IMG/VR virus record: IMGVR_UViG_3300028626_000002
Coordinates: 61,327 to 125,326 of that record
Direction: 5' to 3' (one strand)
From: a virus
Taxonomy: Duplodnaviria; Caudoviricetes
DNA length: 64,000 bases
Position 1 is the first letter of the stretch; each line of letters opens with the position of its first letter. The position numbers were made by a program, and so were the translations under genes. The notes beneath the pieces are model-generated. The model did no database searches and was not told where the DNA came from. It saw nothing but the letters and a program-made list of their open reading frames with translations. This document shows, one piece after another, positions 4,566 through 24,457 of this stretch.

Positions 4566-4702
4566 CGGGTCGAATGCACGTGAGGAGTACATGAGGGCAC
4601 CGCAGGTCGTGGGTTCAAATCCCACCTCCCCGCCTTCGTACGGGGGGTAGCTCAGCCTGGGAGAGCATCGGTATTGAGCTCTTCGCACCCCATCGTCGAC
4701 CC
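4566..4702 (+). ncRNA. YrlA-type Y RNA unit 4
   Basis: CGGGTCGAATG...TCGTCGACCCG; T-arm GTGGGTTCAAATCCCAC, CTCCCCG/CGGGGGG hairpin, D-arm TAGCTCAGCCTGGGAGAGC. Confidence 0.85.
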
Positions 4703-4717
4703 GGTTCTTCTGTCACA

Positions 4718-4880
4718 CGTGCCGAATGCCTGCCGGGGTTACTTCAACAGCGCTACCAGGTCCGAATCCTGGGTCGGCGCCGCAAGGGGCCGTCGAGAGT
4801 GTGGATTGGCAGACACCTCCCGCCTTGCCGCAAGGCGACGGGGGCACCCAAGAAAGTCCCCAGCACCAATGGTCGGCACG
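4718..4880 (+). ncRNA. Y RNA-like unit 5 (large variable domain)
   Basis: CGTGCCGAATGCC...GGTCGGCACG; T-arm variant CCAGGTCCGAATCCTGG and two GCAA-capped hairpins. Confidence 0.7.
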
Positions 4881-4888
4881 GTTCTCGT

Positions 4889-5023
4889 TGACCAGATGCC
4901 CGCTCGGACTACATCACGCGCCGGAGATAGGGGAGCAGCGTCCCCTGCGCCATTCGTGGCGTTCGACCAAAGCAGGTCGCCGGGCCCGCAAGGGCTACCT
5001 CCGAACGAACGAATCGCTGGTCA
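4889..5023 (+). ncRNA. Y RNA-like unit 6
   Basis: TGACCAGATGCC...TCGCTGGTCA, a covarying version of the terminal stem, with a multi-hairpin interior. Confidence 0.65.
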
Positions 5024-5034
5024 TGCGCAACGTC

Positions 5035-5178
5035 ACGAGTCAGATGCCCGTAGGGAGTACACTGAAAATTCTTGGGCCGCAGGTTCAAATCCTGCCCTCT
5101 CCACTCACGGAGAGGTAGCTCAGTTGGTAGAGCAAAGAAGCCGAAAGGCTGCACTCTCTGCACCCTTCGCTGACTCGT
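5035..5178 (+). ncRNA. YrlA-type Y RNA unit 7
   Basis: ACGAGTCAGATG...TCGCTGACTCGT; T-arm GCAGGTTCAAATCCTGC, CCTCTCC/GGAGAGG hairpin, D-arm TAGCTCAGTTGGTAGAGC. Confidence 0.85.
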
Positions 5179-9242: not shown

Positions 9243-10166
9243 ATGAAGAAGACCCCGAAGACCGCCCCGACCTTGACCCCGTTCCAGCAGTTCGTGGTTG
9301 GCAGCGTCATCGCCCACCTGAGGGTGATGCTGTCCGATGCGTTCGCGTACATGATCCCCCTGGCCCCCGAGGACAAGCGCGAGGGCATCGGCGCCGCCGG
9401 CGCCGGGTGCGTCGACCTCGTCGATGAAATCGCGGGGATCCTGGCCACCACCCCGACGCCGGAGGACGTCCTTCCGGCCCTGATCGCCAACAAGCGCAAG
9501 CTGATGGCGAAGGTCGCGGCCATCGCCAGCCAGTTCTCCGGCGAGCCGGTCAAGGTCGAGGAGCTGGAGGAGTTCTTCGCGGGACTGAGGGCCCTGCGGG
9601 AGGGCGGCGAGCTCGCCGGCGACGGCGCGCGCATCAAGGAGCTGGAGACCGAGCTGACCGCGCGCGACGCGCGCATCACCAGCCTCGAGGCCGAGCTGGC
9701 CGCCGCGCGCGCCGCGGCCCCGGCCGCCCCCGCCGCCGTGACGCCCAGGGCCGCCATGGCGCGGCTGAAGAGCGTGACCGAGAGCCTGACAGGCGCGGTC
9801 GAAGAGCTCGTCATGCAGGGTGAGCTGAGCGACAAGAGCGCGGACCTGCAGGCCGAGGTCCGGGCCTTCGTCCGCGCCGCCGGCGTGGGCGAGATGGAGG
9901 TCGCGCCGGTCGTCCCGGCCGGGATGTCCCTGGAGGACCTCCCGCGCGTCATCGGCGACTTCGCCCACGCCAAGGGCGCGGACCCGCTGCTGAAGAAGGC
10001 GGCCGCGGCCGCCAAGGCCCTGTGCGCGTCGCTCGCGCGCGACGCGGCGGCGGCGGCGCGCGAAGCCGCGAGGGCGGCGAAGGAGGAGGCCGCGGCGCGC
10101 AAGGCCGGGCTCCCCGCGTGGAACGAGCTGCTGGGGTTCACGGCGCCGAAGGCCGCGGCCGCGTAG
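9243..10166 (+). CDS. hypothetical Ala-rich coiled-coil protein
   Basis: GAGGA SD; GGCATAAGAA motif upstream at 9151. Confidence 0.75.
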   Translation: MKKTPKTAPTLTPFQQFVVGSVIAHLRVMLSDAFAYMIPLAPEDKREGIGAAGAGCVDLVDEIAGILATTPTPEDVLPALIANKRKLMAKVAAIASQFSGEPVKVEELEEFFAGLRALREGGELAGDGARIKELETELTARDARITSLEAELAAARAAAPAAPAAVTPRAAMARLKSVTESLTGAVEELVMQGELSDKSADLQAEVRAFVRAAGVGEMEVAPVVPAGMSLEDLPRVIGDFAHAKGADPLLKKAAAAAKALCASLARDAAAAAREAARAAKEEAAARKAGLPAWNELLGFTAPKAAAA

Positions 10167-10242
10167 TCGACCCCCGGGCGGGGGGAGACCGTCAAGGGAC
10201 GGCTCCTCCCGCCCAGCTCGACCATGCAGGAGGTTTACGGCG

Positions 10243-10698
10243 ATGGACAGGGCAATCATCAACCTGACCCCCCACGACATCGTCGTGCGGGGACGCAGAG
10301 GCCCGCCCGCGGTCATCCCGCGGTCGGGTACCACCGCTCGGCTCACGCAGGCCGTGGCGGAGGTCGACACCCTCGTGTACGACGGGGCGAACATCCCCGT
10401 CGTGTCCCGCCTCCCGGGTCAGGTGGTCCTCTGGAGCGAGGCCACCCGGGAGAGCAGCGTTGGTTTGCCGGCGGTCGAGCCCGGCAAGGTCTGGCTCGTG
10501 TCGAGCATCGTGCGCGGCTACATGGAGCAGGCCGCGCTCGAAGCCGAGGTCGTGCGCCTGCGGGCGCTGGTGGTCCAGCTGGGAGGGAGCCCCGGCCCGG
10601 ACGTGTCCCGACGTCGCGACGTTGTGTCCCCGGACTCCGGGGGCGCGGTGCGGAACCGCGACGGGGACGTGGTCTCCATCAGCAGGCTCATCCTGTAG
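10243..10698 (+). CDS. hypothetical phage protein (NLTPH N-terminal motif)
   Basis: IINLTPHDIV...LVSSIV...DVVSPD pattern. Confidence 0.7.
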   Translation: MDRAIINLTPHDIVVRGRRGPPAVIPRSGTTARLTQAVAEVDTLVYDGANIPVVSRLPGQVVLWSEATRESSVGLPAVEPGKVWLVSSIVRGYMEQAALEAEVVRLRALVVQLGGSPGPDVSRRRDVVSPDSGGAVRNRDGDVVSISRLIL

Positions 10699-10709
10699 AG
10701 GAGGTGAAC

Positions 10710-10832
10710 GTGAGGTTCCTGATCGTCCTGGGCGGCGGCGGGGGCGGTGTCGGCGGACCCTCGGACCTCCTGGCCATCCTCGCCGCCCGGGTCGCCACTG
10801 ACCTGGGCGTCTCCATCACCCCGCGCGACTGA
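10710..10832 (+). CDS. small hypothetical protein
   Basis: GGAGG SD with GTG start, 40 aa. Confidence 0.45.
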   Translation: MRFLIVLGGGGGGVGGPSDLLAILAARVATDLGVSITPRD

Positions 10833-10865
10833 TGACCCACCGCCCGTGTCAGGGCAACTGCTCAG

Positions 10866-10897
10866 GAAGAGGGGCCGCAAGGCCCCTTCTTCTTAGC
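10866..10897 (+). terminator. hairpin with TTCTTAGC tail
   Basis: AGGGGCC-GCAA-GGCCCCT TCTTCTTAGC. Confidence 0.7.
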
Positions 10898-10953
10898 TCA
10901 GGCTTGCGGAATGCTCACCAATATCGTACAGTACTCTCGGTAACCGTAGGAGG

Positions 10954-11559
10954 TTGCAGTTGGGCACTCCCAGCGCGTGTGACTTGGCGTGGGCCGCCGG
11001 CTTCTTCGACGGAGAAGGCTCGGTGTCCATTCCGCTGGTCCACCCAAAGACAAGGGGCAAGGCGTACCGTCAGATGCAGCTGCAGGTAACCTGCACCAAC
11101 ACGTATCCGCAGGCCCTCAAGCGATTCCAGGAGTGGTTCGGCGGGCGGGTTACGACGGTTCACCGGGGCGCGAAGGATCACCCCCGTAAGCCCTGCTATA
11201 AATGGGCCATGGAGGCTAACGGGGCCGCCTCCTTCTTGAACGCCGTACGTCCATACCTCAAGGTAAAGCACGAGCAGGCGGACCTGGCGCTGCGATTTCA
11301 GTCCACCATGACATCCAGGAACACCGTTACGCTGGAACAGGTGGCCGAGCGGGCCGGGGTGCACGTTACCACTGCGTGCAACTATCTACGGGGGCTGCGC
11401 AAGGGTAACGCTGCAACCGTGCTGCGTCTTCAGCAGGCGGTGGCTGCCCTTGGGTGGACATCTGCGTCTGCTCACCGGTCAGACGCTACCTGGGAAGAGC
11501 GTCTGCGCATCCGCTCCGAGATCACCAGGTTGAACCAGCAGTCGCACGCGTTGCTGTAG
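10954..11559 (+). CDS. LAGLIDADG homing endonuclease with C-terminal LacI-like HTH
   Basis: LAWAAGFFDGEGSV; VTLEQVAERAGVHVTTACNYL; lower GC3 than its neighbours. Confidence 0.85.
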   Translation: MQLGTPSACDLAWAAGFFDGEGSVSIPLVHPKTRGKAYRQMQLQVTCTNTYPQALKRFQEWFGGRVTTVHRGAKDHPRKPCYKWAMEANGAASFLNAVRPYLKVKHEQADLALRFQSTMTSRNTVTLEQVAERAGVHVTTACNYLRGLRKGNAATVLRLQQAVAALGWTSASAHRSDATWEERLRIRSEITRLNQQSHALL

Positions 11560-11617
11560 GTTGTTCTGCAACCTGCCGGAATGGTACCATCAAGCTCGGT
11601 AGGAGGTGCGTGGGCAA

Positions 11618-14600
11618 ATGGCGATCAGTTATGACGCAAAGGCGACGGTCGACTCCCTGATCAACACGGTTGCCAAGCGCATCGGGGTCATCTTCCCCAT
11701 CGAAGGGCGGCAGCACACGCTCGAGGTGCAGGACGTGCAGGCCTCGGGCGACTGGGACATGAAGGACATCGACGGGTACATGCGTGCCAAGCTCCACGGA
11801 CGCACGTGGGGCCTGCCTATCACCGGCACGCTCGTCGTGCGGGACAAGGCGACGGGCAAGGTGCTCGACCGCAAGCAGAACGCCCGCCTGATGACCCTGC
11901 CCGTGATGACCCGGCACTTCTCGTACATCGTGGACGGCAAGGAGTTCGACGCCACCCGTCAGTGGCGCCTGAAGGCCGGCGTGTACCACCGTGTGAAGGC
12001 GAACGGTCAGCTGGAGGCCCAGTGGAACCTCAGCGAGGGGCGCGGCTTCCACACCGCCTTCGACCCCGCTCGGCACAAGTTCACGATGCAGTACGCGTCG
12101 TCCACCGTGTCGCTGTACCCGGTCCTGCGTGCTCTGGGCACGTCGGATGCCGAGATCAGCCGGGCATGGGGGCCGGACCTGCTCGAGGGCAATGTCGGGT
12201 CTCCCGCGACCAGCGCCAGGGACCTCACGAAGCTCTACAAGGCCATCACCGGCAAGCCCCCGGCGGACGAGAAGGAGATGCTGCTGACCATTCGCGACAC
12301 GTTCGCGAAGACGGCCATGCGCCCCGACGTCAACAAGATCACCCTCGGCCGGCCCGACGACCGGGTCACCCCTGGTGGGCTGCTGCAGTCCTCCAAGCGC
12401 CTGTTGGACATGTCCCGGGGCAAGGGGGAGCCCGATGCCCGCGACAGCGTGGTGTTCAAGGAGCTGCTGGACATCGACGACTTCGTCGACGACCGCCTCG
12501 TGGCGATGACCCGCAAGATCCAGGGCAAGGTGCGCAACCGACTGGACCACGAGAACAAGGTCGACGCCATCTACTCCGCGGACTACATGAACCACCCCGT
12601 CAAGACGTTCTTCACGGGGATGTCGCTGGCGGAGCAGCCGCGGCAGGTGAACCCCGTCGACATGTTCAGCTCCATGACGAAGACCACGGTCATGGGCGAG
12701 GGCGGCATCCAGTCTTCCCACGGTGTGCCCCTCGAGGCACGCATCCTCGACAACAGCCACGTGGGCGTGCTGGACCCCATCCACAGCCCCGAGGGCGGGA
12801 AGGTGGGCATCAACCTGCATCTGGCCCTGGGCGCCGGCAAGCAGGGCAGGGAACCCACGCTCTACGTGCGCGACCCGGCAACCGGCAAGATCGAGACCAA
12901 GACCGTGCAGGACCTGGAGCCCCTGACCCTGGCGTTCCCCGACCAGTTCATCCGCCGGCCGGACGGCAAGATGCAGCCGGTGGCGAAGATGGTCACCGCC
13001 CTGGGGCCGGGCAACGAGATCGTGCGGGTGCCGGCGTCGAAGGTGGACTTCGTCTTGCCGACGCCCAAGGCCATGTTCAGCATCACCGGCAACCTCGTCC
13101 CGTTCCTCCAGAACACCTCCGGCCCGCGCGTGTCCTACGCGATGCACCACATGGAGCAGGCCCTGGCACTGAAGTACCGGGAGCAGCCCCTCATCGCGGT
13201 GGCCTCCGGCGGTGAGCGCGCCCCCACCTTCGAGGACCTCGTCGGCAGGTACTTCACCTCCCGGGCTCCCGTGGACGGCCGCGTCGTGCGCGTCGCCAAG
13301 GACCACATCAGCATCCGGGGGACCGACGGCAAGCTCTACAAGGAGCCGCTGTACGTCGACTACCCGCTGAACGAGAAGTCGGCGTTCATCAACAGCGAGC
13401 CGGTGGTCAAGGCGGGCGACAAGGTCGAGAAGGGACAGGTCGTCGCGGACACGAACCACACCCGGGACGGGCAGCTGGCCCTGGGCGTGAACCTCAAGAC
13501 CGCGTACATGCCCTACCTCTCGAACACCTACGACGACGCCATCGTCATCTCGGAGTCGGCGTCGCAGAAGCTCACGTCGCAGCACCTGTACAAGGAGCGC
13601 CTGGACGTCGACGAGGACATCACCGTCGACAAGGCCAAGTACCGGGCCATGTACCGCGACCGTCTGGACGACCGGCAGGCGAAGCAGCTGGACAACGAGG
13701 GTGTGGTACAGGAGGGCACCGTCGTACAGCCCGGGGACGTGCTGGTGACGGCTCTGCGGAAGCGCAGCCCCACCGAGGAAGAGCTGCTGGTCCGCGGCAT
13801 CGCGAAGAGTCTGGCCCGGCCCTTCGCCGACGTGGCCGTGCGGTGGGAGAGCCAGTACCCGGGCGTGGTCAAGCGTGTGGTGAAGAACGGGGACAACATC
13901 CAGGTTCACGTGGCCAGTGAGGAGCCGGCCGGCGTGGGCGACAAGCTCTGCTTCGACCCCGAGACCGAGTACCTGGTGGAAGGCAAGGGCTGGGTGAAGA
14001 GCCCGCTGCTCACGCCGGACGACCGAGTGCTCACGTACAAGGCCCCCGAGAACCCCAGCCACCGCCGGTCCACCGCGGATGGGTGGCTCGAGTGGCAGTA
14101 CCCGACACGGGTCGTGGAGTTCGACCACGACGGCCAGATGTACCGCGTGCTGACGGCCGAGATCGACCAGTTCGTGACGCCGAACCACAACCTCTACGTG
14201 AAGGTGCTGACGCGTGACCATCAGACCCTCCGGCAGAACCGCTTCCGGCTGGTGCAGGCCAGGAAGGTGCTGGGCAAGCCCGTCGTGCACGCGCAGTACG
14301 GCGCCAACGAGAATGTCCATGAGCCGGCCTCCCTGGAGTTCGGCAAGCGGACGGTGCCCACGCGGTCGTACCTGAAGCTGCTGGCCCACCTGTTCCGTCA
14401 CGGCATCCGCCGGGACCAGCTGGTGTTCTTCCCCGGCAACGGCTACTCGGCGTCCTGCCGGCAGGCCATGGACGAGTGCGGCATCACGTACTCCATCCGC
14501 ACCGTGGACAGCCGCGGCGGGCTGCTGACGAGCGACCCGCTGGTCTGCGACGTGGACTTCGAGAACAGCCTCCCGGCGTTCCTGGACACCCTGCCCACCC

Positions 14601-16192
14601 GGACCCTCAGCGCGTTCCTCCACGACCTGTTCCGCGGCACCCCGATGCTGTCCACCCAGCGCCACGGGGCCGGGTGCACCCGCATCGTGAACCGCAGCAT
14701 GATCGACAGGCTGCAGGAACTGGGCGTCCGCGCCCGGGTGGTGTTCTGCGTGTCCCCCGGCCCGGGGGACAAGTACACGGCGTCCATCACCGTTCTCGGC
14801 AGTCGCGCGGCGGTGGGGAGCCCCGTCAACTTCGAACGGCGCGGGAAGAACGATGGCCTGGTGCAGTACACCGGCAAGGTCTACTGCTGCACGGTCCCGA
14901 ACGGCATCCTGGTGACCCGCCGGAACTTCAAGGTGGTGCTCTCGGGCAACAGCGGCCGGCATGGCAACAAGGGCGTCATCTCGACGGTCCTGCCTGACGA
15001 CCAGATGCCGCGCACCAAGGACGGGCCGGTCGACATCATCCTGAACCCCCTCGGCATCCCGAGCCGCATCAACGTGGGCACGGTCCTCGAGACCAGCCTG
15101 TCGAAGGTGGCGAAGAAGGAGGGGCGGCAGATCGCCGTGTCGAACTTCGAGCCCGACCCCTCGAAGCGCATCGTCCGCAAGACCATTCATGTGGCCCCTC
15201 ACTCCCGTACCATCCAGACGAAGGAGGGCCCCAAGACCGTCCAGGTGGAGGGATACTCCTATGAGCGCGACTACACGGAAGCGGTCGAGGCGGAACTCGC
15301 GAAGGCGGAAATCTCCGAGAAGGAAGAGGTCACGGATCCGGTGTCCGGGAAGAGCGTGGGCAACGTCCTGGTGGGTTACCAGTACACCATCAAGCATGTC
15401 CACCAGGCTGAGAAGAAGCTCGCCGCCCGCTCTGGGGGCCCCGGGTACGACTACGACGCCAACATGGCTCCCAAGTCGTCCGGCCATGCCAGTGGCCAGT
15501 CGATGGGCGAGCTGGGCCTCTACAGCCTGCTGAGCCACGGCGCCCTCAGCCTCATCCGCGAGGGCACCACGTACAAGTCCGATGCCTCCCAGAGCGAGGT
15601 GTGGACCGCGCTCCAGACCGGTGAGCCCCTGCCCCCGCCGAAGCCCAGCTTCGCCTACGGGAAGTTCCTGTCCCTGCTGTCGGCCATGGGCGTGGCCGTG
15701 GATCGCACGGGCAGTCAGCTGAGCCTGCGGCCGACCACCGACGAGGATGTCCTGAAGCGGTCGAATGGCGAGCTGAAGGAGTCCACGCTGACCCTCCGCG
15801 CCAAGGACCTGAAGCCGGAGGAGGGCGGGCTCTTCGACGAGCGCATCACCGGCGGCATCCGGGGGGACCGCTGGTGCTTCGCGCACGACACGCTGGTGCT
15901 GACCGAGTGGGGTCCCATGCGCATCGGGACTCTCGTCGAGCACCGCATCCAGGTTCGAGTGTGGTCCTACGACTTCCAGGCGAAGGAGTTCGTGCTGCGA
16001 CCCATCACCGAGTGGCACCGGAACGAGACCGACCCGTCTGTCGAGCCGGTGGGCACGCTGGTCTACCACACGCCGTACGGTGTCCTGGAGGCCCTGCACG
16101 GCACCTTCAAGCACGAGCTGATGACCGAGGATGGCGGGCGGCGGCCCATGGGTGAATCCGAGGCGCTCCTCTACGTGGACCAGGACGCATGA
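11618..16192 (+). CDS. rpoB: phage RNA polymerase beta subunit fused to the beta' N-terminus; contains a cis intein and ends in a split-intein N-half
   Basis: DPIHSPEGGKVG, QLALGVNL, YDDAIVISES, GDKL|SGRHGNKGVIS, DIILNPLGIPSRIN, GQSMGELG; then beta'-like KPEEGGLFDERITG. Confidence 0.93.
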   Translation: MAISYDAKATVDSLINTVAKRIGVIFPIEGRQHTLEVQDVQASGDWDMKDIDGYMRAKLHGRTWGLPITGTLVVRDKATGKVLDRKQNARLMTLPVMTRHFSYIVDGKEFDATRQWRLKAGVYHRVKANGQLEAQWNLSEGRGFHTAFDPARHKFTMQYASSTVSLYPVLRALGTSDAEISRAWGPDLLEGNVGSPATSARDLTKLYKAITGKPPADEKEMLLTIRDTFAKTAMRPDVNKITLGRPDDRVTPGGLLQSSKRLLDMSRGKGEPDARDSVVFKELLDIDDFVDDRLVAMTRKIQGKVRNRLDHENKVDAIYSADYMNHPVKTFFTGMSLAEQPRQVNPVDMFSSMTKTTVMGEGGIQSSHGVPLEARILDNSHVGVLDPIHSPEGGKVGINLHLALGAGKQGREPTLYVRDPATGKIETKTVQDLEPLTLAFPDQFIRRPDGKMQPVAKMVTALGPGNEIVRVPASKVDFVLPTPKAMFSITGNLVPFLQNTSGPRVSYAMHHMEQALALKYREQPLIAVASGGERAPTFEDLVGRYFTSRAPVDGRVVRVAKDHISIRGTDGKLYKEPLYVDYPLNEKSAFINSEPVVKAGDKVEKGQVVADTNHTRDGQLALGVNLKTAYMPYLSNTYDDAIVISESASQKLTSQHLYKERLDVDEDITVDKAKYRAMYRDRLDDRQAKQLDNEGVVQEGTVVQPGDVLVTALRKRSPTEEELLVRGIAKSLARPFADVAVRWESQYPGVVKRVVKNGDNIQVHVASEEPAGVGDKLCFDPETEYLVEGKGWVKSPLLTPDDRVLTYKAPENPSHRRSTADGWLEWQYPTRVVEFDHDGQMYRVLTAEIDQFVTPNHNLYVKVLTRDHQTLRQNRFRLVQARKVLGKPVVHAQYGANENVHEPASLEFGKRTVPTRSYLKLLAHLFRHGIRRDQLVFFPGNGYSASCRQAMDECGITYSIRTVDSRGGLLTSDPLVCDVDFENSLPAFLDTLPTRTLSAFLHDLFRGTPMLSTQRHGAGCTRIVNRSMIDRLQELGVRARVVFCVSPGPGDKYTASITVLGSRAAVGSPVNFERRGKNDGLVQYTGKVYCCTVPNGILVTRRNFKVVLSGNSGRHGNKGVISTVLPDDQMPRTKDGPVDIILNPLGIPSRINVGTVLETSLSKVAKKEGRQIAVSNFEPDPSKRIVRKTIHVAPHSRTIQTKEGPKTVQVEGYSYERDYTEAVEAELAKAEISEKEEVTDPVSGKSVGNVLVGYQYTIKHVHQAEKKLAARSGGPGYDYDANMAPKSSGHASGQSMGELGLYSLLSHGALSLIREGTTYKSDASQSEVWTALQTGEPLPPPKPSFAYGKFLSLLSAMGVAVDRTGSQLSLRPTTDEDVLKRSNGELKESTLTLRAKDLKPEEGGLFDERITGGIRGDRWCFAHDTLVLTEWGPMRIGTLVEHRIQVRVWSYDFQAKEFVLRPITEWHRNETDPSVEPVGTLVYHTPYGVLEALHGTFKHELMTEDGGRRPMGESEALLYVDQDA
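13949..14950 (+). mobile_element. cis intein (334 aa) with degenerate endonuclease region
   Basis: starts CFDPETE, block B VTPNHNL, ends YCCTVPNG...VLSGN|S; inserted in the conserved GDKL/SGRHGNKG motif. Confidence 0.92.
15875..16189 (+). mobile_element. split intein N-half (105 aa)
   Basis: CFAHDTLVLTEWGPMRIG...GTFKHELMT, then a stop codon with no C-terminal intein motifs. Confidence 0.88.
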
Positions 16193-16821
16193 ACAGGACG
16201 CTCACCAGGGACCAGATGCTCGAGCTCCAGCACAAGCACGCACCCGACGTGCAGCTGGTGGCCGAGCCGAAGCACTGGATCGGCAGCTTCTACATGCCGA
16301 AGTCCCGGGTGGCGAAGGCGCTGTACGGCGACTACCCCGAGAGCATCGTGGCCCCCGGCAAGTCCCCCGGCGTGTTCCTGCATGAGTTGGGGCATGCCAC
16401 TCCGAGCAAGCTCCGCTCGGCGCTGCACCCCTTCTACTCCGTCGGCGGGGCCGGGTCGGCCATGATGCTGTTCGCCCCCGGCAAGGCCCGGCTGGCCGGC
16501 GCTGCGCTCTACGCTCCGACCGTGGCCGAAGAGGTCCGGGCCTGGGTGGCGGCCAAGAAGTACGCCAAGGAGCACGGCATCCACATCGACGCGAAGTACC
16601 CGGCGTTGGGACTGGGCAGCTACATGCTGCCACCGGTCTACGCCGCGGTGCACGCGCTGAAGCGAAAGGGCATGCGCCCGCTGACGGCGAAGGGCCGCAA
16701 GATCGCCTGGGCCACCACCGGCGCCGTCATCGGGGTGCAGGAGGCTCTGGACTACCTGCAGGGGCGGAAGGCTGTCAGGGCGCTGCGCCGGGCGCAGGAG
16801 AACGGGGGGCAGTTCCGATGA
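16189..16821 (+). CDS. putative membrane-associated HExxH zinc peptidase-like protein
   Basis: FLHELGHA...EEVRAW, hydrophobic segments. Confidence 0.5.
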   Translation: MNRTLTRDQMLELQHKHAPDVQLVAEPKHWIGSFYMPKSRVAKALYGDYPESIVAPGKSPGVFLHELGHATPSKLRSALHPFYSVGGAGSAMMLFAPGKARLAGAALYAPTVAEEVRAWVAAKKYAKEHGIHIDAKYPALGLGSYMLPPVYAAVHALKRKGMRPLTAKGRKIAWATTGAVIGVQEALDYLQGRKAVRALRRAQENGGQFR

Positions 16822-17363
16822 GGGGTGCTGACTCCATCCAGTACCTGCGAGGCCTGGGCGTCTTCCCCGGCCGTGGACGCCGGACCATCATCAGTCGCCT
16901 CTACAAGCACCACATCGGGGGCTACGACAGCGGGAAGTGGATCCAGAAGCAGGCAGCCTGTGACCCTCGCCTCAAGCTCCTCGGTTGCGTGGCCGGCATC
17001 AGGGTCTTCCAGGTGGACGGCGAGGCGGTGCGCCTGCACTACCTCGCCGACTTCGTCCAGGGAGGCAACCACGAGGTCTACCCGTGGGTCCCGGAGAACG
17101 AGGTCTGGGTCGAGGACAACCTCTCCCGCCCCAAGGCCCTACTCATCGCCCTGCACGAGCTCGTCGAGCGGGCATGGATGAAGCGCGGCCGCAAGTACCC
17201 AGTGGCCCACGTGTACGCCTTGTCGGTGGAGCGCTACTGCAGGCAGCACCCCGCCGCCATTCACACCCTGCTCACCGCGGCGGCCCACGGCGTCCTCTTG
17301 GCCATGCCCGAGGAGCGCAAGGTCATCGAGCGGCAGAACGCTCGCGCGCGCAGCGAGGGCTGA
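16818..17363 (+). CDS. hypothetical protein (HELVE..AH metal-binding-like motif)
   Basis: ATGA coupling; ALHELVERAWM...AHVYAL. Confidence 0.6.
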   Translation: MRGADSIQYLRGLGVFPGRGRRTIISRLYKHHIGGYDSGKWIQKQAACDPRLKLLGCVAGIRVFQVDGEAVRLHYLADFVQGGNHEVYPWVPENEVWVEDNLSRPKALLIALHELVERAWMKRGRKYPVAHVYALSVERYCRQHPAAIHTLLTAAAHGVLLAMPEERKVIERQNARARSEG

Positions 17364-17395
17364 CGCCCGGCAAGAACGTGATTTCTCAGGTATAA

Positions 17396-18037
17396 GTGCC
17401 TTGCACCCCGAACCATAGGAGGTCTACGTTGGGAGCCCCTCGTCGTCCGCCGGAAGTGAAGGCAGAGGAGGCCACGCCGCACCAGAAGTACTGGCTGGCC
17501 AACGGCATGGAGGTCCGGCCGTTCCGGTGGGACCCCAGCACCGAGAGCGTCATGTGCAGCCGGGAGATCAGCCCGGGGCACCGCAAGCGCGACTACCCCG
17601 TCAAGTTCGGCACTACTCTCTTTACCACCCCGCCGCTGAAGGTCGAGAAGCCGGCGGCGGGGGAGGAGCAGTTCGACACGTCCGCAGCCAGGACCGTCCG
17701 CCTGGATTGCACCAAGCCCAACCTCAGCGGTCCGCTCAGCCCGGAGTTCCGGGAAGAACTCCAGGTGCCGACGGCAGGCGCAGCGCTCCCGCCGGTCCAG
17801 GCCAACGCGGCGCCTGACGACGCCATGGGTCGCATGATGGCGCTCCACGCTCTTCGAGAGGCCATGACGGCGGCTCTGAGCGAGAACACCAGCCGGAAGT
17901 GGCAGTACTTCCTCATCGCCTGCCGCCTCAACCCGCAGCTGCGGGCCACGAAGTCCATCCTGGTTCAGGCCGAACTGGACGCCCGGGCGGTGGACGCCCA
18001 GTCGACGGAAATCATGAACGCTGCCAAGAAGCTCTAG
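17396..18037 (+). CDS. hypothetical protein
   Basis: ORF downstream of the GGTATAAG motif; start uncertain. Confidence 0.6.
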   Translation: MPCTPNHRRSTLGAPRRPPEVKAEEATPHQKYWLANGMEVRPFRWDPSTESVMCSREISPGHRKRDYPVKFGTTLFTTPPLKVEKPAAGEEQFDTSAARTVRLDCTKPNLSGPLSPEFREELQVPTAGAALPPVQANAAPDDAMGRMMALHALREAMTAALSENTSRKWQYFLIACRLNPQLRATKSILVQAELDARAVDAQSTEIMNAAKKL

Positions 18038-18044
18038 GAGAGGA

Positions 18045-18533
18045 ATGACCATGCCCACCAAGAAGAAGGCCGAGCCCGCGAAGAAGGCCACCGGTCCGAA
18101 GTCCGTCGTCAAGGACGTCACCGCCCCGCCGCTGCTGGTCACCGTGAAGGGCCACAAGTACGGCCTGGACGTGGAGACGGAGGAGGGGAAGCCCTCCGTC
18201 AAGTGCGACTTCGTGGCCGGCGCGCCCAAGCACTACGACCTGGGGGACGGCTACCTGATGATGTCGGGCGAGCTGCAGCTCGCCAACGGCCAGACCGCCT
18301 ACGCCGTGCTCGAGATCAGCCTCGAGGACGGCGGCGAGCACTGCGGCACCGGCTTCATGATCCCGGCCTACGACGGGCAGCCGCAGGCCATCGTCTTCCA
18401 GGGCGAGAGCAACTTCCTGCCGCAGATGCGGCGGTTCGGGCTCTCGTCCAAGGACATCTTCCCGTACCGCTACAACTACCACGAGCACCTCGAGCGTGAC
18501 CACCACGTGGGCGACGACGGCTGGAGCCTCTGA
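18045..18533 (+). CDS. hypothetical protein
   Basis: SD, high GC3. Confidence 0.7.
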   Translation: MTMPTKKKAEPAKKATGPKSVVKDVTAPPLLVTVKGHKYGLDVETEEGKPSVKCDFVAGAPKHYDLGDGYLMMSGELQLANGQTAYAVLEISLEDGGEHCGTGFMIPAYDGQPQAIVFQGESNFLPQMRRFGLSSKDIFPYRYNYHEHLERDHHVGDDGWSL

Positions 18534-18775
18534 TGGGCAAGTCCAGCATCACCATGGACACGCTGCTGGACTTCATCGACGCCCTCGAGGGGGACGTGCT
18601 GGACCGGGTTACCGAGTTCCTCGACGAGCACGTCTGCGACGGGAAGGCGGCGGAGGCGTCCGAGATCAACAACTGCGGTCCCCTGACGCAGCTGGAGTAC
18701 ATCCTGGGCGACCCGAGTCCGTCGGAAGAGGCGCTGCAGGACATGCTGTCTGGCCTCAAGTACGCGGCGGAGTAG
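18533..18775 (+). CDS. hypothetical protein
   Basis: TGATG coupling. Confidence 0.65.
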   Translation: MGKSSITMDTLLDFIDALEGDVLDRVTEFLDEHVCDGKAAEASEINNCGPLTQLEYILGDPSPSEEALQDMLSGLKYAAE

Positions 18776-18815
18776 GGTGCTTGGCTCCGGGCGGAAGTCG
18801 TCGTAGAATCACCCG

Positions 18816-19046
18816 TTGAACCGGAGAGCTGACATGCTGAGGGTCGGGAGCCTGGCGTACACCGTCGAGGTGCTGCGGGACAAGATGGGCGGCAGCAAGC
18901 CCCTCATCGTGCCCGTGCGCATCCAGGAGATGCCGAACGAGGCCGGGGAGTACCTGGTGACCTACGTTGCCAGCCCCGTCGAGCGCAAGCCCTTCCGCTG
19001 CAAGAAGGTGTTCGAGACCAAGTCCGAAGCACTGAGGGCACCGTGA
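18816..19046 (+). CDS. hypothetical protein
   Basis: short ORF with phage codon usage; start uncertain. Confidence 0.55.
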   Translation: MNRRADMLRVGSLAYTVEVLRDKMGGSKPLIVPVRIQEMPNEAGEYLVTYVASPVERKPFRCKKVFETKSEALRAP

Positions 19047-19267
19047 AACTGCAGGTCTACAAGGTCCGCGCGTACATCGAAGTCGAGGCGCCGCCGAAGT
19101 TCGAGGGCATCCTCGCGGAGATGACCGACGACATGCTGAAGAGCATGCTGCCGGCCGACGACATCACCACCCCGGACGGCACGGTTGTGCGCTTCGTCGG
19201 CTCGATGGTCACCGAGGTCGAGACCACTACCATGACCGTCGACTACGAGCCCCCCGAGGCAGCGTAG
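19043..19267 (+). CDS. hypothetical protein
   Basis: GTGA coupling. Confidence 0.6.
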   Translation: MKLQVYKVRAYIEVEAPPKFEGILAEMTDDMLKSMLPADDITTPDGTVVRFVGSMVTEVETTTMTVDYEPPEAA

Positions 19268-19270
19268 GGG

Positions 19271-19302
19271 ACAAGGGGGCGTAAGCCCCCTTGTTTCTTA
19301 GC
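19271..19302 (+). terminator. hairpin with TTCTTAGC tail
   Basis: ACAAGGGGGC-GTAA-GCCCCCTTGT TTCTTAGC. Confidence 0.75.
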
Positions 19303-19448
19303 TGACAGGCGGTATTTCATCCTCCGATTGTGGGATAAGAAGTACGGAAGAGGAGGACTGCTTCGTTTGGGGTGGAGCACCCCCGGAAGACGAAGCAGCC
19401 CCCAAGGCGAGCGCCCCCTGCGCGGGGCCATGCAAAGGAGGTTCCCTC

Positions 19449-19787
19449 ATGTGCAACCGGCTGCTGGTCGTGACGATGGACGGGAAGGGCAACGCGAGGA
19501 TCGTGAACAACGAGCTGATGATGGACGCGCCGGCCGCGACCAGGCGGACCGTCGAGGTGCTGAAGGGCCTGACCGACGAGGGCGTCGCCGCGGTCGTGGT
19601 CGAGACGGACTTCAAGGGGTACTTCCTGGGCCTGCGCGCGGACCTGGCGGTCATCGCGGCGAAGCCGGACCCCCTGACCGAGGCGGTCCAGGGCATCCTC
19701 GAGGTGCTGAAGGCGCGGCTCCCGGCCGCGACCCCGATCCCGACCCCGGTGCCGGAGCCCACGCCCGACGTGCCCCCCGCGGCCTGA
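19449..19787 (+). CDS. hypothetical protein, Pro-rich tail
   Basis: AAGGAGG SD. Confidence 0.7.
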   Translation: MCNRLLVVTMDGKGNARIVNNELMMDAPAATRRTVEVLKGLTDEGVAAVVVETDFKGYFLGLRADLAVIAAKPDPLTEAVQGILEVLKARLPAATPIPTPVPEPTPDVPPAA

Positions 19788-19840
19788 CCCCGGCCGCCCG
19801 CGCGACGCGGGCATGAACCGCCGGACTTCCCCGTGTGCGA

Positions 19841-19868
19841 GAGAAGGGCGAAAGCCCTTCTTCTTAGC
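19841..19868 (+). terminator. hairpin with TTCTTAGC tail
   Basis: GAAGGGC-GAAA-GCCCTTC TTCTTAGC. Confidence 0.7.
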
Positions 19869-19970
19869 CCGGATCTGCACACCTTCAAGTGGGCATAAGA
19901 ACTGCGGAAAGGGCGTGCCTGGTCGGCTCGCCCTCATGTCGTCGCCCTCGGGCGAATGCAGGAGCAAAAG

Positions 19971-20375
19971 ATGAAGACGGCGCTGATCACGGGCATCACG
20001 GGGCAGGACGGCAGCTACCTGGCAGAGCTGCTCCTCGGGAAGGGTTACCGGGTGGTGGGGCTGATGCCCCGCCGGTCCAACCCGGACGTGCAGACCGCCA
20101 AGCTGGCCCCGGTCATACCCAGCCCCGACTTCATCCTGGAGTCGGGCGACCTCACCGACGGCGGGTCGCTGGCCCGCCTCGTCCGCCTGGCGCAGCCGGA
20201 CGAGGTGTACAACAGCGAGGTCCGGGGGGAGATCCGCGCCACGGCCGCGGACCTCGGCTTCCCCATCACCCCCGACCAGGTTGAGTGGGTCAAGGTCGCC
20301 ATCATCCCCCGCGTTCGGAGCGTCCGCGCCCTGGAGGTGGCCGTCAAGGCGGCGTTCTCCCCGGGAGGCTCCTGA
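19971..20375 (+). CDS. truncated or chimeric GDP-mannose 4,6-dehydratase (N-terminal ~80 aa only)
   Basis: MKTALITGITGQDGSYLAELLLGKGYRV...GDLTD...QPDEVYN followed by unrelated sequence; no YxxxK catalytic motif. Confidence 0.75.
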   Translation: MKTALITGITGQDGSYLAELLLGKGYRVVGLMPRRSNPDVQTAKLAPVIPSPDFILESGDLTDGGSLARLVRLAQPDEVYNSEVRGEIRATAADLGFPITPDQVEWVKVAIIPRVRSVRALEVAVKAAFSPGGS

Positions 20376-20432
20376 AGCGTCCCCACGCGCGCCAGGTAGG
20401 CGCGCAAGCCCCGGCAGCTCGCCGGACCCCAG

Positions 20433-20460
20433 AAGAACAGGCGCAAGCCTGTTTCTTAGC
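20433..20460 (+). terminator. hairpin with TTCTTAGC tail
   Basis: AACAGGC-GCAA-GCCTGTT TCTTAGC. Confidence 0.65.
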
Positions 20461-20507
20461 CCCTCGACTCTGCTACAATTTAACCCAGGACCTTGAGGCA
20501 AGCCTGC

Positions 20508-20630
20508 ATGAAACTGGTCAGCGCACCCTGCAAGTGGCACCCGTCCCAGACCAACGAGCGGCAGGTCCTCTACAACATCGGTGTCGACGACACCCACAAC
20601 TACATCGCCGGCGGCGTGCTGGTGGGCAAC
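20508..20630 (+). mobile_element. split intein C-half (41 aa)
   Basis: VLYNIGVDDTHNYIAGGVLVGN|S (blocks F and G); the +1 residue is Ser. Confidence 0.88.
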
Positions 20631-23618
20631 TCCCACTTCAAGCTGGCCGAGCCGATGCCCAACCCGGTCTACGAGCGCGCCATTCGTGCTCTCACCGGGC
20701 TCAGCTCGGAGCAGTACCACGGCATCCTGGAGGGCAAGCTGGCCCTCTCCCCGGACGGCACACTGGTGCCCGACGATGACCAGGAAGGGGTCCTGCGGGG
20801 CGGCTACGCCTTCGAGAAGCTGCTCTCGTCCATCGACCGGGACAAGGAGCTGGATGGCCTCCTGTCGTCCGCCGCGACCGCCAGAGGGCAGAAGCTCGAC
20901 GACATCGTGAAGAAGGCGAAGATCCTTCGCGGGCTGAAGAAGGCCAACCTCCAGCCCACGGTGTACCTGCAGCGCGTCATGCCCGTGCTGCCCCCGCAGC
21001 TCCGACCCATCACCATCACCGGCAGCGGGGACATCTCCTACGACGACCTGAACGGCGTCTACAAGGCCATCGCCCTGGACAACAAGCAGCTGACGGACTT
21101 CCCGAAGGGTCTGCCGGAGACCGAGAAGGGGCACGTCCGGGCGGAGCTGTACGACGGCATGAAGTCTCTGGCCGGTCTCGACGGCGCGCTGAACCGGGAG
21201 CAGGAGATCAAGGGCATCCTCGACCTCATCCACGGCAGCGAGCTGAAACACGGCTTCTTCCAGAAGAACCTGATGAAGCGGCGCCAGGACATGACCGCGC
21301 GCGGTGTCGTCATCCCCGACATGAACGTCGGCATGGACGAGCTGGGCATCCCGAAGACCGTGGCCAAGACGCTCTACGAGCCCTTCGTCGTGAAGGAGCT
21401 GACGCAGCCGCCCTACTCGATGAACGTCGCCGACGCCAAGCAGGCGCTGAAGGACGAACGCGAGGCGGCCATGCGCATCCTCGACACGCAGCTGGAGAAG
21501 CGCCCCCTGGCGATGAAGCGCGACCCCGCCCTCCACCGCCACAGCGTCCAGGGGTTCTACCCGAAGATCGTGTCCGGGAACGCCATCCGCGTGAGCCCCC
21601 TCGTCGTGGCCGGGTACAACATGGACTTCGACGGCGACCAGGTCAGCCTGTACGTGCCCGTGACGAACGAGGCGGCCGAGGACGTCAAGCGCATGACCCC
21701 CAGCAACATTCTGAAGAGCCCCACCAGCCACGAGATCATGTACTTCCCCCGGCTGGAGGCGCAGCTGGGGCTGTTCATGATGACCAAGCCCGGAGAGCGC
21801 AAGGCCACGGCCTACAGCAGCGAGTCCGCCCTGCTGAAGGACTACGTCGACGGCAAGCTCGAGCAGACGGACATCGTGCGGCTCAACGGGAAGGACACCA
21901 CGCCGGGCCGGGCTATCGTGGCCGGTGCGCTGCCCGCCGGCGAGACCCGGGAGAAGGTGCTGCATGACCTCGACTTCGACCTCACTGGCAAGAACACCCG
22001 GCGCATCATCGGAGCACACGCGTCGGAGCCCAACGTCTACAAGGGCATCGTGCAGAAGCTGAACCAGATCGGCTTCACCCAGGCCACCGCCATGGGGTAC
22101 AGCGTGGGGCTGAAGGACTTCCGTACGCTCAAGGTCATCCGGGACGCGGCGTTGAAGAAGGCCGACATCGCGGCGTCGCACCTCCCCGAGCACGCCCCCG
22201 ACCGCAACGAGCGGCTGGTGAAAATCTACATGGACGCGTCGGAGGAGATCCGGGAGGGGGCCGAGAAGAAGTTCGGCAAGGAGTTCAACGCGCTGATGAC
22301 CATGTGGAAGGCAGGGGCCAAGGGCGACTGGCTGAACATCCGCCAGATCCTGTCCACCCCCATGATCGTCGACAGCCCCACGGGCCCCGTGCCGCTGCCC
22401 ATCCGCCACTCGTACAGCGAGGGCCTGGACTCGGCGGAGTACTGGATCGCCGGGCACGGCGCCCGCAAGGGCATGTACGACCGCGTCATGGAGGCCAGCC
22501 TGCCCGGGTCCATCAACAAGCAGCTGACCAACGTGGCGATGGGCATGTCCATCACCGAGCCCGACTGTGGGGTGAAGGCGGGGATCAGCCGCCCCGTCGA
22601 CTCCCCCGACATCATCGACCGCTACACCGCGGAGCCCGTGAAGATCGGCAGCAGGACCCTGCCCAAGAACACGCTCATCACGTCGCAGATCGTGGACAGC
22701 CTGAAGAAGGCCAAGAAGACCTCAGTGGTGATCCGCAGCCCGCTGCGATGCTCCGCCCACAAGGGCATGTGCTCGAAGTGCTACGGCCTGGGCCCGGACG
22801 GCAAGCCGGCCAGCGTGGGGACCAACGTCGGCGTCATCGCCGCGCAGGCCCTCGGCGAGCGCGGCACCCAGCTGGCCCTGCGGAGCTTCCACTCCGCCGG
22901 CGCCACCTCGACGAAGAAGTCGGTCATCAACAGCATCGGGCGCGTGCGGCAGCTGGTGGCCATGCCCGAGATCCTGCCGGGCAGCGCCACGCTTTCCACC
23001 GAGGGCGGAACCGTCTCGAGGGTCGAGAAGGACCCGGCCGGCGGCTTCCGGGTGTGGGTGGGCGACACCGACCACTACGTGCCGTTTGGCATGGACCTCA
23101 TCAAGAAGCGCGGCGACAAGGTGAAGAGGGGCGAGGCCCTGTCGAAGGGCGTCGTGAACCCCCACGAGCTGCTGCCGCTGGCCGGCGTCAACGCGGTGCA
23201 GAGCTACCTGGCCGACGAACTGGACGGGCTGTACTCGCGAGAGGGTGTGCGGCGGGTGCACGACGAGGTGCTCGTCCGCGCCGTCACGAACCTGGGCACC
23301 GTCGTGGACCCCGGGGACCATCCCGACCTTCTGCCGTCGGACACCACCAGCGTGCAGTCCATCGAGGCCTGGAACGCGGAGCACCGCGGCGAGAAGCCGG
23401 TGAAGTACGAGACGGTGCTGAAGGGCGTGGACGTGCTGCCCCTCGAGCAGACCGAAGACTGGCTTACAAGGCTGGCGTACAGGCGACCTGCTGAGACCAT
23501 TACCCGGGGGGCCGTGGAGGGCTGGACGAGCCACCTGCATGGAAACTCCCCTGTTCCCGGGGTGGTCTACGGTGCCGAGTTTGGCCTTCCCCCGAAGGGC
23601 AGCAAAACCCCCTATTGA
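20508..23618 (+). CDS. rpoC: split-intein C-half plus the remainder of the RNA polymerase beta' subunit
   Basis: PVLPPQLRP, KRDPALHRHS, catalytic YNMDFDGDQ, GARKG, Zn site RSPLRCSAHKGMCSKCYG, AAQALGERGTQLALRSFH. Confidence 0.93.
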   Translation: MKLVSAPCKWHPSQTNERQVLYNIGVDDTHNYIAGGVLVGNSHFKLAEPMPNPVYERAIRALTGLSSEQYHGILEGKLALSPDGTLVPDDDQEGVLRGGYAFEKLLSSIDRDKELDGLLSSAATARGQKLDDIVKKAKILRGLKKANLQPTVYLQRVMPVLPPQLRPITITGSGDISYDDLNGVYKAIALDNKQLTDFPKGLPETEKGHVRAELYDGMKSLAGLDGALNREQEIKGILDLIHGSELKHGFFQKNLMKRRQDMTARGVVIPDMNVGMDELGIPKTVAKTLYEPFVVKELTQPPYSMNVADAKQALKDEREAAMRILDTQLEKRPLAMKRDPALHRHSVQGFYPKIVSGNAIRVSPLVVAGYNMDFDGDQVSLYVPVTNEAAEDVKRMTPSNILKSPTSHEIMYFPRLEAQLGLFMMTKPGERKATAYSSESALLKDYVDGKLEQTDIVRLNGKDTTPGRAIVAGALPAGETREKVLHDLDFDLTGKNTRRIIGAHASEPNVYKGIVQKLNQIGFTQATAMGYSVGLKDFRTLKVIRDAALKKADIAASHLPEHAPDRNERLVKIYMDASEEIREGAEKKFGKEFNALMTMWKAGAKGDWLNIRQILSTPMIVDSPTGPVPLPIRHSYSEGLDSAEYWIAGHGARKGMYDRVMEASLPGSINKQLTNVAMGMSITEPDCGVKAGISRPVDSPDIIDRYTAEPVKIGSRTLPKNTLITSQIVDSLKKAKKTSVVIRSPLRCSAHKGMCSKCYGLGPDGKPASVGTNVGVIAAQALGERGTQLALRSFHSAGATSTKKSVINSIGRVRQLVAMPEILPGSATLSTEGGTVSRVEKDPAGGFRVWVGDTDHYVPFGMDLIKKRGDKVKRGEALSKGVVNPHELLPLAGVNAVQSYLADELDGLYSREGVRRVHDEVLVRAVTNLGTVVDPGDHPDLLPSDTTSVQSIEAWNAEHRGEKPVKYETVLKGVDVLPLEQTEDWLTRLAYRRPAETITRGAVEGWTSHLHGNSPVPGVVYGAEFGLPPKGSKTPY

Positions 23619-23662: not shown

Positions 23663-24457
23663 ATGAAGCGGGTCTCGGCCGAGGTGCGGCGTCAAGCTCT
23701 TGCCATGTACGCAGCGATGGTCCCCACGGCGACCATCGCGAAGGTGTTGTCGCTGTACCCCAGCACCGTGTCCCACTGGGCGCGCGCCGCGGGCGTGACC
23801 AGGCCCCGCTCGGAGTCCTGTCGCAAGTACACGCTGGACACGAAGTTTTTCGCCAGCATCGACTCGGAGGCCAAGGCGTACTGGCTGGGATTTCTCTACG
23901 CCGACGGTTGCGTGTACCGGCAGACCGTGCGCGTTCTGCTCTCCTCGACTGACGAGGGGCACCTGCAGCGGCTGCTGAACTGCGTTGGCAGCGACCAACC
24001 CATTCGGAGTGTGCGCTGCGGGAAGCACCCGGGGGCGCTGCTGGTTGTGCGGAGCTGCGACTGGGTGATGGACCTGAGTCGGCACGGCGTATGCCCACGC
24101 AAGACCTACACCGGTCAGCACCCCACTAATGTACCGGCAGCGCTGGTGCGGCATTTCGTACGGGGGGTGTTCGACGGGGATGGCTGCGTCTCGTACTCTC
24201 GCAACCAGGCCGCCGTTGATTGGACAGGCGGGGAGGCGTTTCTTCGGTGGCTGGCGGTGCAGATCACCACAGAGGTGGGGTTGTCGGGGCACTCCCCGCG
24301 CAAGACGGCCAGCAAACATGCCTGGCGTTTGCAGTACGCCGGCAACCGCCAAGCCGCAGCACTTCGTGACTGGATGTACCGAGATGCAACGGTGTGGTTG
24401 CCGCGTAAGCGCGAACGGTTTGATCAGCCGCCGACGAGCAGCAAGACCCCGTATTGA
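23663..24457 (+). CDS. double-motif LAGLIDADG homing endonuclease with N-terminal HTH
   Basis: AYWLGFLYADG and FVRGVFDGDG; own TTGACG-18-TACACT promoter. Confidence 0.88.
   Translation: MKRVSAEVRRQALAMYAAMVPTATIAKVLSLYPSTVSHWARAAGVTRPRSESCRKYTLDTKFFASIDSEAKAYWLGFLYADGCVYRQTVRVLLSSTDEGHLQRLLNCVGSDQPIRSVRCGKHPGALLVVRSCDWVMDLSRHGVCPRKTYTGQHPTNVPAALVRHFVRGVFDGDGCVSYSRNQAAVDWTGGEAFLRWLAVQITTEVGLSGHSPRKTASKHAWRLQYAGNRQAAALRDWMYRDATVWLPRKRERFDQPPTSSKTPY

Follow-up and report, generated by a model that had tools for sequence, protein, structure and literature searches.

How does a phage make one RNA polymerase (RNAP) from two genes that lie more than 4 kb apart, each of which carries part of an intein? 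The question is raised by a stretch of 64,000 nucleotides (nt; the window hereafter) of the 125-kb IMG/VR virus record IMGVR_UViG_3300028626_000002, in which the open reading frame (ORF) for the RNAP β subunit ends, and that for the β′ subunit begins, with intein-like sequence. An initial annotation of this window proposed that a naturally split intein joins the two products across nine unrelated genes. We show here that the arrangement is that of an ancestral single-chain RNAP gene interrupted twice, by one contiguous (cis) intein and by one split intein, and that the polymerase is encoded in two genes and, judged from its sequence, almost certainly stitched into one chain after translation. 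The record has 67% GC and an estimated completeness of 68% (CheckV). The same proteins have been recorded from a contig of 184,783 bp, and the source is a large, apparently uncultured phage from a family of ~180-kb phages. A megablast search with the 12-kb locus found no match among GenBank phages, tblastn against the same phages returned relatives that were all below 30% identity, with no close cultured relative, and a pattern scan of IMG/VR with the β′ N-terminus retrieved only distant, intein-free single-chain relatives.

The first ORF (11606/11618-16192) and the second (20493/20508-23618) are both on the plus strand, as are the parts into which they divide. The first encodes residues 1-777 of β, ending in ...GDKL (N-extein part 1, 11618-13948; Pfam Rpb2_3 and Rpb2_6), then a contiguous cis intein of 334 amino acids (aa) with the sequence boundaries GDKL|C...SGN|SGRHGNKG (13949-14950), and then the C-terminal third of β fused to the first ~40 residues of β′ (N-extein part 2, 14951-15874), a stretch collinear with the single-chain proteins P0035, P0036 and other relatives. 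It ends with a 105-aa N-terminal intein half (IntN) and a stop codon (15875-16192). The frame reads ...GGLFDERITGGIRGDRW|CFAHDT..., Cys1 being encoded at nt 15875 directly after GDRW; IntN itself occupies 15875-16189 and the stop codon 16190-16192. The second ORF, with its ATG at 20508 and a GAGG ribosome-binding site (RBS), opens with a 41-aa C-terminal intein half (IntC, 20508-20630) that ends in VLVGN|SHFKLA, and continues with the remaining 995 residues of β′ and a stop codon (C-extein, 20631-23618; Pfam Rpb1_1, Rpb1_2, Rpb1_4 and Rpb1_5). This extein starts SHFKLAEPMPNP, with Ser+1 at nt 20631 and SHFKLAEP as its first residues. Each intein piece thus has an ORF of its own, IntN being closed by a stop codon and IntC opened by a start codon; both ORFs are intact, with an RBS and proper codons for start and stop, and bear matching halves. 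The run of β into the β′ N-terminus and the lengths of the two halves were confirmed as the initial annotation had given them, and the interval that it had marked, 15875-20630, coincides exactly with the span from Cys1 to the terminal Asn. Together the three extein parts amount to 777 + 308 + 995 = 2080 aa (1085 + 995).

The features of a class-1 intein are present in the two halves: Cys1 of block A and T77-F-K-H80 of block B (T77-x-x-H80) in IntN, and block F (...VDDTHNY...) and block G (VLVGN) in IntC, the end of which reads ...VDDTHNYIAGGVLVGN|S, that is, the terminal Asn and then Ser+1. The Ser at +1 and the Gly-Asn end that had been remarked upon previously are therefore present in the sequence. 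IntC matched TIGR01443 with 24.5 bits (27.4 in a genome scan; cut-off 15.6), and IntN matched the NCBIfam model PRK09532 (DnaE) at positions 775-853 of 876 with an E value of 4.7e-5. The best matches of IntN in the PDB were chains of the Npu and Ssp DnaE split inteins; a single-sequence search gave the Npu N fragment (4lx3, 4qfq) at 1e-5, and a four-sequence profile gave the Npu DnaE split intein at 1.3e-7. A Foldseek search with a weak structural model of IntN likewise returned inteins or intein-like domains for almost all of the top 30 hits, with the Npu DnaE split intein first. The IntC profile matched known inteins at their very C-termini, namely the Spl DnaX mini-intein (1.8e-6), a PolB intein, gp41-1 and NrdJ-1, as well as the Npu DnaE C fragment (0.03). 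When the whole record was scanned, a single intein match of the N-terminal and a single one of the C-terminal type were found, so that IntN and IntC are each other's only partners.

When the last 413 residues encoded by the first ORF were used as the query, thousands of relatives were found, and the best 120, which we examined, were dominated by single-chain β-β′ proteins of 2035-2131 aa, many of them encoded on phage-sized contigs of about 150-195 kb. Alignment to intein-free relatives, a comparison that the initial annotation had proposed, showed that more than 100 single chains run without a break through the predicted junction W|SH (for example, ...GGLFDE.ITGG.GG..W-SH(I/F).L.E..PNP), and a distant intein-free relative with separate, overlapping β and β′ genes (P0008) also reads KFW|SHVTLAE. 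The predicted spliced product of 2080 aa falls within the size range of the single-chain relatives. Given that the relatives read through the junction and that the sum of the exteins equals their size, we conclude that the ancestral state was a fused single-chain RNAP gene. The single chain of about 2080 aa that had been anticipated finds strong comparative support in these proteins, and would be produced if the halves splice.

We next compared the window with other carriers of the split intein, which were drawn from JGI, ENA, NCBI and Logan assemblies and comprise seven β-IntN proteins (P0028-P0034) and five IntC-β′ proteins (P0003-P0007). Cys1 and the block-B His are invariant in the IntN carriers (7/7 each), as are the terminal Asn and Ser+1 in the IntC carriers (5/5 each), and the block-B Thr is found in six of seven; identity in the remainder of the intein is 33-70%. 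In a tree of the N-extein, the seven split carriers and a long-branched single-chain protein, P0089, formed a clade with 100% support. Constraining the seven to be monophyletic cost 1.6 log-likelihood units (p = 0.38 in the approximately unbiased test); a single origin of the split set is compatible with these data, albeit unproven. One of the carrier loci, L011, is on an independent NCBI metagenome contig that has diverged from the window by a synonymous distance (dS) of about 0.55, and it shows the same layout of β-IntN followed by the first five of the genes that lie between the halves (g1-g5). The ratios of nonsynonymous to synonymous change (dN/dS) relative to L011 were 0.09-0.10 for the exteins (0.09 for β residues 1-777), 0.11 for the cis intein, 0.28 for IntN and 0.20-0.50 for g1-g5. 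Because L011 shares the layout and dN/dS is low, we conclude that the split layout is real, inherited and under selection. In a related phage, each of the two split proteins was read from 17 contigs (ENA and Logan), and the ENA scaffold bears both.

The course of events that we favor begins with two genes derived from an ancestral single-chain gene, one for β, the cis intein, the β′ N-terminus and IntN, and the other for IntC and the rest of β′. Both would be driven by promoters of the same type and hence made together. After translation, the 105-aa IntN and the 41-aa IntC would assemble one Hint domain, in which Cys1 would attack the peptide bond of Trp(−1) (an N-S acyl shift at Trp-Cys1); the N-extein would then be transferred to Ser+1 by transesterification, the terminal Asn would cyclise, and an O-N shift would follow. 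The exteins would be ligated as ...GDRW-SHFKLAEP..., and the 334-aa cis intein would be excised as well. It is very probable, in our judgement, that IntN and IntC associate and splice by this class-1 pathway and thereby, after removal of the cis intein as well, yield the 2080-aa single-chain RNAP.

The expression signals of the two half-genes bear on whether the halves are made together. A generic scan for sigma-70 promoters and terminators was uninformative in DNA of 67% GC. Promoter-like sequences of the extended −10 type were found on the plus strand 28 nt before the β start codon (TGGTACCAT, 11582-11590) and 29 nt before the IntC start codon (TGCTACAAT, 20471-20479), and these are the only two sites in the 64-kb window that fit TGNTAYMAT. 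Since TGGTACCAT is palindromic and is counted on both strands, the count is 3 versus 0.66 expected, a number that 2 of 100 shuffled sequences reached. Relatives carry TGGTATCAT or TGCTACCAT before β and TGCTACAAT, GATACAAT, TGCCACAAT or TGTCAGAAT before IntC, and we read the TGNTAYMAT elements as extended −10 promoters of one class. The initial annotation had suggested that the split may gate RNAP assembly, in which case the timing or the conditions of expression would differ between the halves and active RNAP would form only when both are present. The halves are indeed in separate transcription units, with a terminator-like hairpin directly before the IntC promoter, and the separation reaches 47 kb in one relative. 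However, the same promoter-like class precedes both half-genes, with similar elements in relatives, which points to co-expression and so weakens the gating idea, and the single-chain relatives do without such a gate. We found no support for gating and consider it improbable.

Several observations weigh against splicing of the two halves and should be considered together. IntN matched TIGR01445 with an E value of 1.3e-3 and 19.6 bits, which is under the curated cut-off of 24.5, and PF14890 matched the C-half only (E 0.008, 16.4 bits versus a cut-off of 35.8). The AlphaFold2 (AF2) model of IntN alone is weak, with a predicted local distance difference test (pLDDT) score of 60, and its best Foldseek hits, Npu DnaE split intein chains at an E value of 3e-5, have a template modelling (TM) score of only 0.45. 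The penultimate residue of the intein is Gly here and Ser in relatives instead of the usual His. The net charge is −8 for IntN and 0 for IntC, and since both halves are acidic or neutral, electrostatic pairing of the DnaE type is absent. Nonsynonymous change relative to L011 was about three times faster in IntN than in the exteins. An outgroup phage has separate β and β′ genes, so that the covalent join is perhaps not strictly required for activity. Lastly, splicing itself is deduced from sequence comparison.

Some of these points would fit a different role for the two halves, in which IntN and IntC are a splicing-dead dimerisation module that holds β-β′N and β′C together non-covalently, without peptide ligation. 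The missing penultimate His, the relaxed constraint on IntN and the separate β and β′ genes of the outgroup phage are in agreement with such docking, as is a fragmented ribonucleotide reductase that is reported to be assembled via interaction domains derived from a mobile element (PMC3045599). In contrast, the carriers show no variation at Cys1, the block-B His, the terminal Asn or Ser+1 even though IntN identity is as low as 33-70%, and pure docking is disfavored because a docking module would not need invariant catalytic residues. Active DnaE split inteins likewise lack the penultimate His. We regard docking without ligation as very unlikely. As for an artefact or a decaying gene, to which the origin of the record as a metagenome-derived viral contig of 68% estimated completeness might be taken to point, the likelihood is negligible: misassembly (against which the initial annotation had warned), pseudogene, intron and frameshift were all rejected, given that the layout recurs in the independent assembly of the diverged L011 and is borne out by the contigs of the related phage, that split carriers occur in several independent assemblies, that the exteins are under strong purifying selection, and that both ORFs are intact, each with its matching intein half, correct start and stop signals and an RBS.

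The origin of the split intein, to which we turn now, was traced through full-size cis inteins. IntN was the query of an exhaustive phmmer search, which yielded 103 proteins. Several of these are single chains that belong to the same RNAP family and have, in the same β′ loop, an unbroken intein of ~450 aa whose middle is LAGLIDADG-like (for example, P0240, P0168 and P0154, reading ...TGG..G|CFHPS ... ANGILVSN|S(R/N)W(S/N)H...). Residues 1-103 of IntN align to the N-terminal parts of these cis inteins (E values of 1e-15 to 5e-20) and residues 1-41 of IntC to their C-terminal ends (E about 1e-6), and an endonuclease domain of roughly 295 residues lies between the aligned ends. Because the halves align with the two ends of the ~450-aa inteins, we place the break at the canonical endonuclease insertion point, and the sizes of 105 and 41 aa fit the canonical split (about 100 aa for the N-half and about 35-40 aa for the C-half). 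The cis inteins are located at G|S.W, three residues upstream of the split site W|SH, with Ser at +1 in both; at W|SH itself, a cis intein was seen in none of the 111 single-chain sequences aligned. We propose as the source of the split intein this LAGLIDADG-bearing family, which is common in these RNAPs, a member having been broken at the endonuclease insertion point.

Eight insertion sites of cis inteins were found in the 111 single-chain relatives (TPEG|, GDKL|, GVPGR|, LTYK|SD, NADFDGD, FH|TGG and others), and the single-chain RNAP family is an intein hot spot with at least nine insertion sites when the split site is counted, plus the G|S site. Four other single-chain relatives among the 111 have an intein at GDKL|SGRHGNKG, the site of the 334-aa cis intein in the window, and this cis intein is also present in P0029, P0030, P0031 and P0034. 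It gave no match in Pfam or NCBIfam, no LAGLIDADG motif was seen in it by eye, and its AF2 model (pLDDT 44) was too poor to use, yet its dN/dS of 0.11 shows strong purifying selection. The inteins in the catalytic NADFDGD motif (P0005, encoded at 10001-14752 of locus L002, P0098 and P0143) are unusual at their ends, which read ...DFDGN|C ... (Y/W)D|T; on a conventional reading, either an Asn would replace the third catalytic Asp or the intein would end in Asp. P0155, a 1204-aa protein of another RNAP lineage, contains an N-terminal intein part from ...GAVDSK|CFHRS and ends about 126 residues later, and it may represent either an independent split at the neighboring G|S site or a truncated contig.

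The interval between the two halves in the window is 4315 nt long (16193-20507) and contains nine co-directional ORFs on the plus strand. The ATG of g1 (16189-16821) overlaps the stop codon of IntN (ATGA), and it is followed by g2 (16818-17363), g3 (17396-18037), g4 (18045-18533), g5 (18533-18775), g6 (18816-19046) and g7 (19043-19267). Given that these genes are tightly packed, that g1 overlaps the IntN stop codon and that no terminator-like site was found before 19274, g1-g7 are probably co-transcribed with β-IntN. The β-IntN/g1-g7 unit ends with a terminator-like element on the plus strand (19274-19302), a hairpin with a GNRA loop (19274-19292) followed by TTCTTAGC. The last two genes, g8 (112 aa, 19449-19787) and g9 (139 aa, 19956-20375), are set off as small cassettes, each with ATAAGAA upstream (at 19335 and 19895, respectively) and a hairpin with TTCTTAGC downstream (approximately 19840-19868 and 20434-20460). 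TTCTTAGC together with a hairpin occurs four times in the window (10890, 19295, 19861 and 20453) versus 0.33 expected. ATAAGAA occurs seven times in this 67% GC DNA, always on the plus strand (9154, 19335, 19895, 33985, 50591, 57664 and 62257), in the context gg(g/c)ATAAGAAnTnCGG and usually shortly before an RBS, and it probably marks a class of phage promoter other than that of the TGNTAYMAT elements at the RNAP genes. Thus, of the earlier description of nine genes with their own promoters and terminators, the nine ORFs and the two cassettes of g8 and g9 stand, while g1-g7 appear to be transcribed with the N-half gene.

Of the nine ORFs, only g9 gave a hit in Pfam or PHROGs, and no function could be assigned to g1-g8, or to the family of g4, by searches of Pfam, PHROGs, a PDB profile or Atlas. 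A HELGH motif in g1 and an LHELVE motif in g2 were noted, and Atlas structure and feature matches point weakly to zinc metallopeptidases (Zn_peptidase_2, M48 and M78); we treat these as leads only. The first ~86 residues of g9 correspond to the Rossmann N-terminus of GDP-mannose 4,6-dehydratase (PF16363, E 6.8e-19, positions 1-81 of 332; phrog_540) and are followed by unrelated sequence, and g9 may be a captured fragment of a host gene. That no endonuclease gene lies between the halves, as the initial annotation had pointed out, was borne out: neither Pfam nor PHROGs revealed an endonuclease family among the nine ORFs, and tblastn with the LAGLIDADG endonuclease cores of the cis inteins detected no remnant in the gap. 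Free-standing genes with LAGLIDADG and helix-turn-helix domains adjoin β and β′, one directly before β (10954-11559, PF00961) and one directly after β′ (23663-24457, PF14528), so that the RNAP locus is flanked by homing-endonuclease-like genes, none of which is between the intein halves. Genes g1-g5 are conserved in L011; other relatives show hardly any synteny with the nine gap genes, and only g2 has a homologue there, downstream of β′ in locus L005.

We examined the distance between the halves in relatives, computed from locus coordinates. In L026, the locus of P0034, IntN ends at 4535 and IntC-β′ starts at 5036, and the 500-bp gap contains a single ORF of 127 aa (4621-5004). The gap is 4.3 kb in both the window and L011. 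On ENA scaffold_39, β-IntN ends at 123114 and IntC-β′ starts at 76136 on the same strand, the two being ~47 kb apart. At four further loci (L024, L005, L009 and L012), no partner half was present within the 1.8-10 kb readable on the relevant side. The 4.3-kb gap that the initial annotation had noted is therefore lineage-specific and not a defining feature of the locus. P0034 branches outside a group, supported at 93%, of the other six split carriers. The compact state of IntN, one small free-standing ORF and IntC would have survived in L026, the gap having later grown to 4.3 kb here and ~47 kb elsewhere; the simplest history would be a compact state resembling that of 'fractured genes', followed by insertion and rearrangement. 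Such growth of the gap could be tolerated because trans-splicing frees the two parts from contiguity.

The ORF between the halves in L026 is homologous to g4 (tblastn 4e-11), to the counterpart of g4 in L011 (7257-7757) and to an ORF of L025 (3-413) located immediately upstream of IntC-β′; the tblastn E values of this family were 4e-11 and 1.7e-10. It is a family of small proteins without a name, comprising 18 clusters of 117-166 aa with the motifs FxAGG, EIDE..SGEH.GTG, FPYKY and DHHVGDDGWS, and it has no Pfam or PDB relative and no recognisable nuclease domain. A member is also found free-standing in an unrelated phage context. One could speculate, although we think it rather unlikely, that the g4 family represents mobile or homing genes of a new kind, and that the split arose when such a gene entered a resident RNAP intein at its endonuclease site, after which the RNAP gene was scattered over as much as 47 kb. 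If this were true, the clade would record the stepwise birth of a split intein and the dispersal of a core gene.

Natural split inteins are few, and each is valuable both as a tool for protein ligation and as a view of how selfish elements reshape essential genes. The known system that IntN resembles most among solved structures is the cyanobacterial DnaE split intein (Ssp/Npu; PDB 4lx3, 4qfq and 1zd7). Both have the same split point, Cys1 and a penultimate residue other than His, and in both the coding regions of the halves are widely separated by unrelated genes, none of them for an endonuclease. The Npu DnaE halves are about 102 and 36 aa long. Unlike the DnaE intein, the intein described here resides in RNAP β-β′ and not in the α subunit of DNA polymerase III, has Ser instead of Cys at +1, lacks the complementarity of an acidic N-half and a basic C-half, and is only about 25-30% identical; moreover, it is carried by phages in which the separation of the halves varies from 0.5 to 47 kb between close lineages. 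The phage RNAP split intein is hence a structural and sequence relative of the DnaE type, not a member of it.

With regard to its host protein, fused rpoB-rpoC genes are known in Helicobacter and Wolbachia. These too give a single-chain β-β′; in contrast to the phage gene, they are not known to be split again by an intein. The family of ~180-kb phages is large, and its single-chain β-β′ RNAP is an exceptional intein hot spot; we found no published description of this single-chain phage RNAP family in the literature. The full-size cis inteins of these phage polymerases (P0240, P0168 and P0154) are clearly homologous to both halves, share with them the RNAP family and the β′ loop, and end similarly in ...VSN|S, but they are contiguous, ~450 aa long with a LAGLIDADG-like middle, and located at TGG..G|S.W instead of W|SH. 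The RNAP inteins covered by an intein survey, which include the cis inteins of archaeal and chloroplast RNAP subunits, are all contiguous (PMC4760082); they share with the present case the large subunits of RNAP as hosts and differ from it in being unbroken. Jumbo phage MIJ3 has its split intein in DNA polymerase B, and our literature search found no published split intein in any RNAP. A multisubunit-type RNA polymerase as the host class, the pairing of Cys1 with Ser+1 and the Gly-Asn or Ser-Asn ends set the present intein apart.

The closest parallel in organization is with the 'fractured genes' of Dassa et al. (2009; PMC2677866), such as those of gp41-1, NrdJ-1 and IMPDH-1, which are likewise of phage or environmental origin, break the gene of a conserved enzyme, have Ser at +1 and possess control elements before the second half. 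That study listed eight types of DNA-metabolism enzyme, RNAP not being among them. The three-part layout of L026, with the IntN gene, one small free-standing ORF and the IntC gene, corresponds to theirs. Unlike theirs, the middle ORF of L026 belongs to a family in which no nuclease domain is recognisable, and the gap in the window holds nine genes; a free-standing homing endonuclease between the halves, which characterizes that group, is absent from the window, so that the locus works like the fractured genes without being one of them. What the phage RNAP adds to these systems, besides the nameless g4 family between the halves, is a comparative series that comprises intein-free single chains, homologous cis inteins of full size at a site three residues upstream, the compact 'fractured' arrangement of L026, and the dispersed layouts of 4.3 kb and 47 kb, and because this series exists, the birth of a split intein and its consequences are directly testable.

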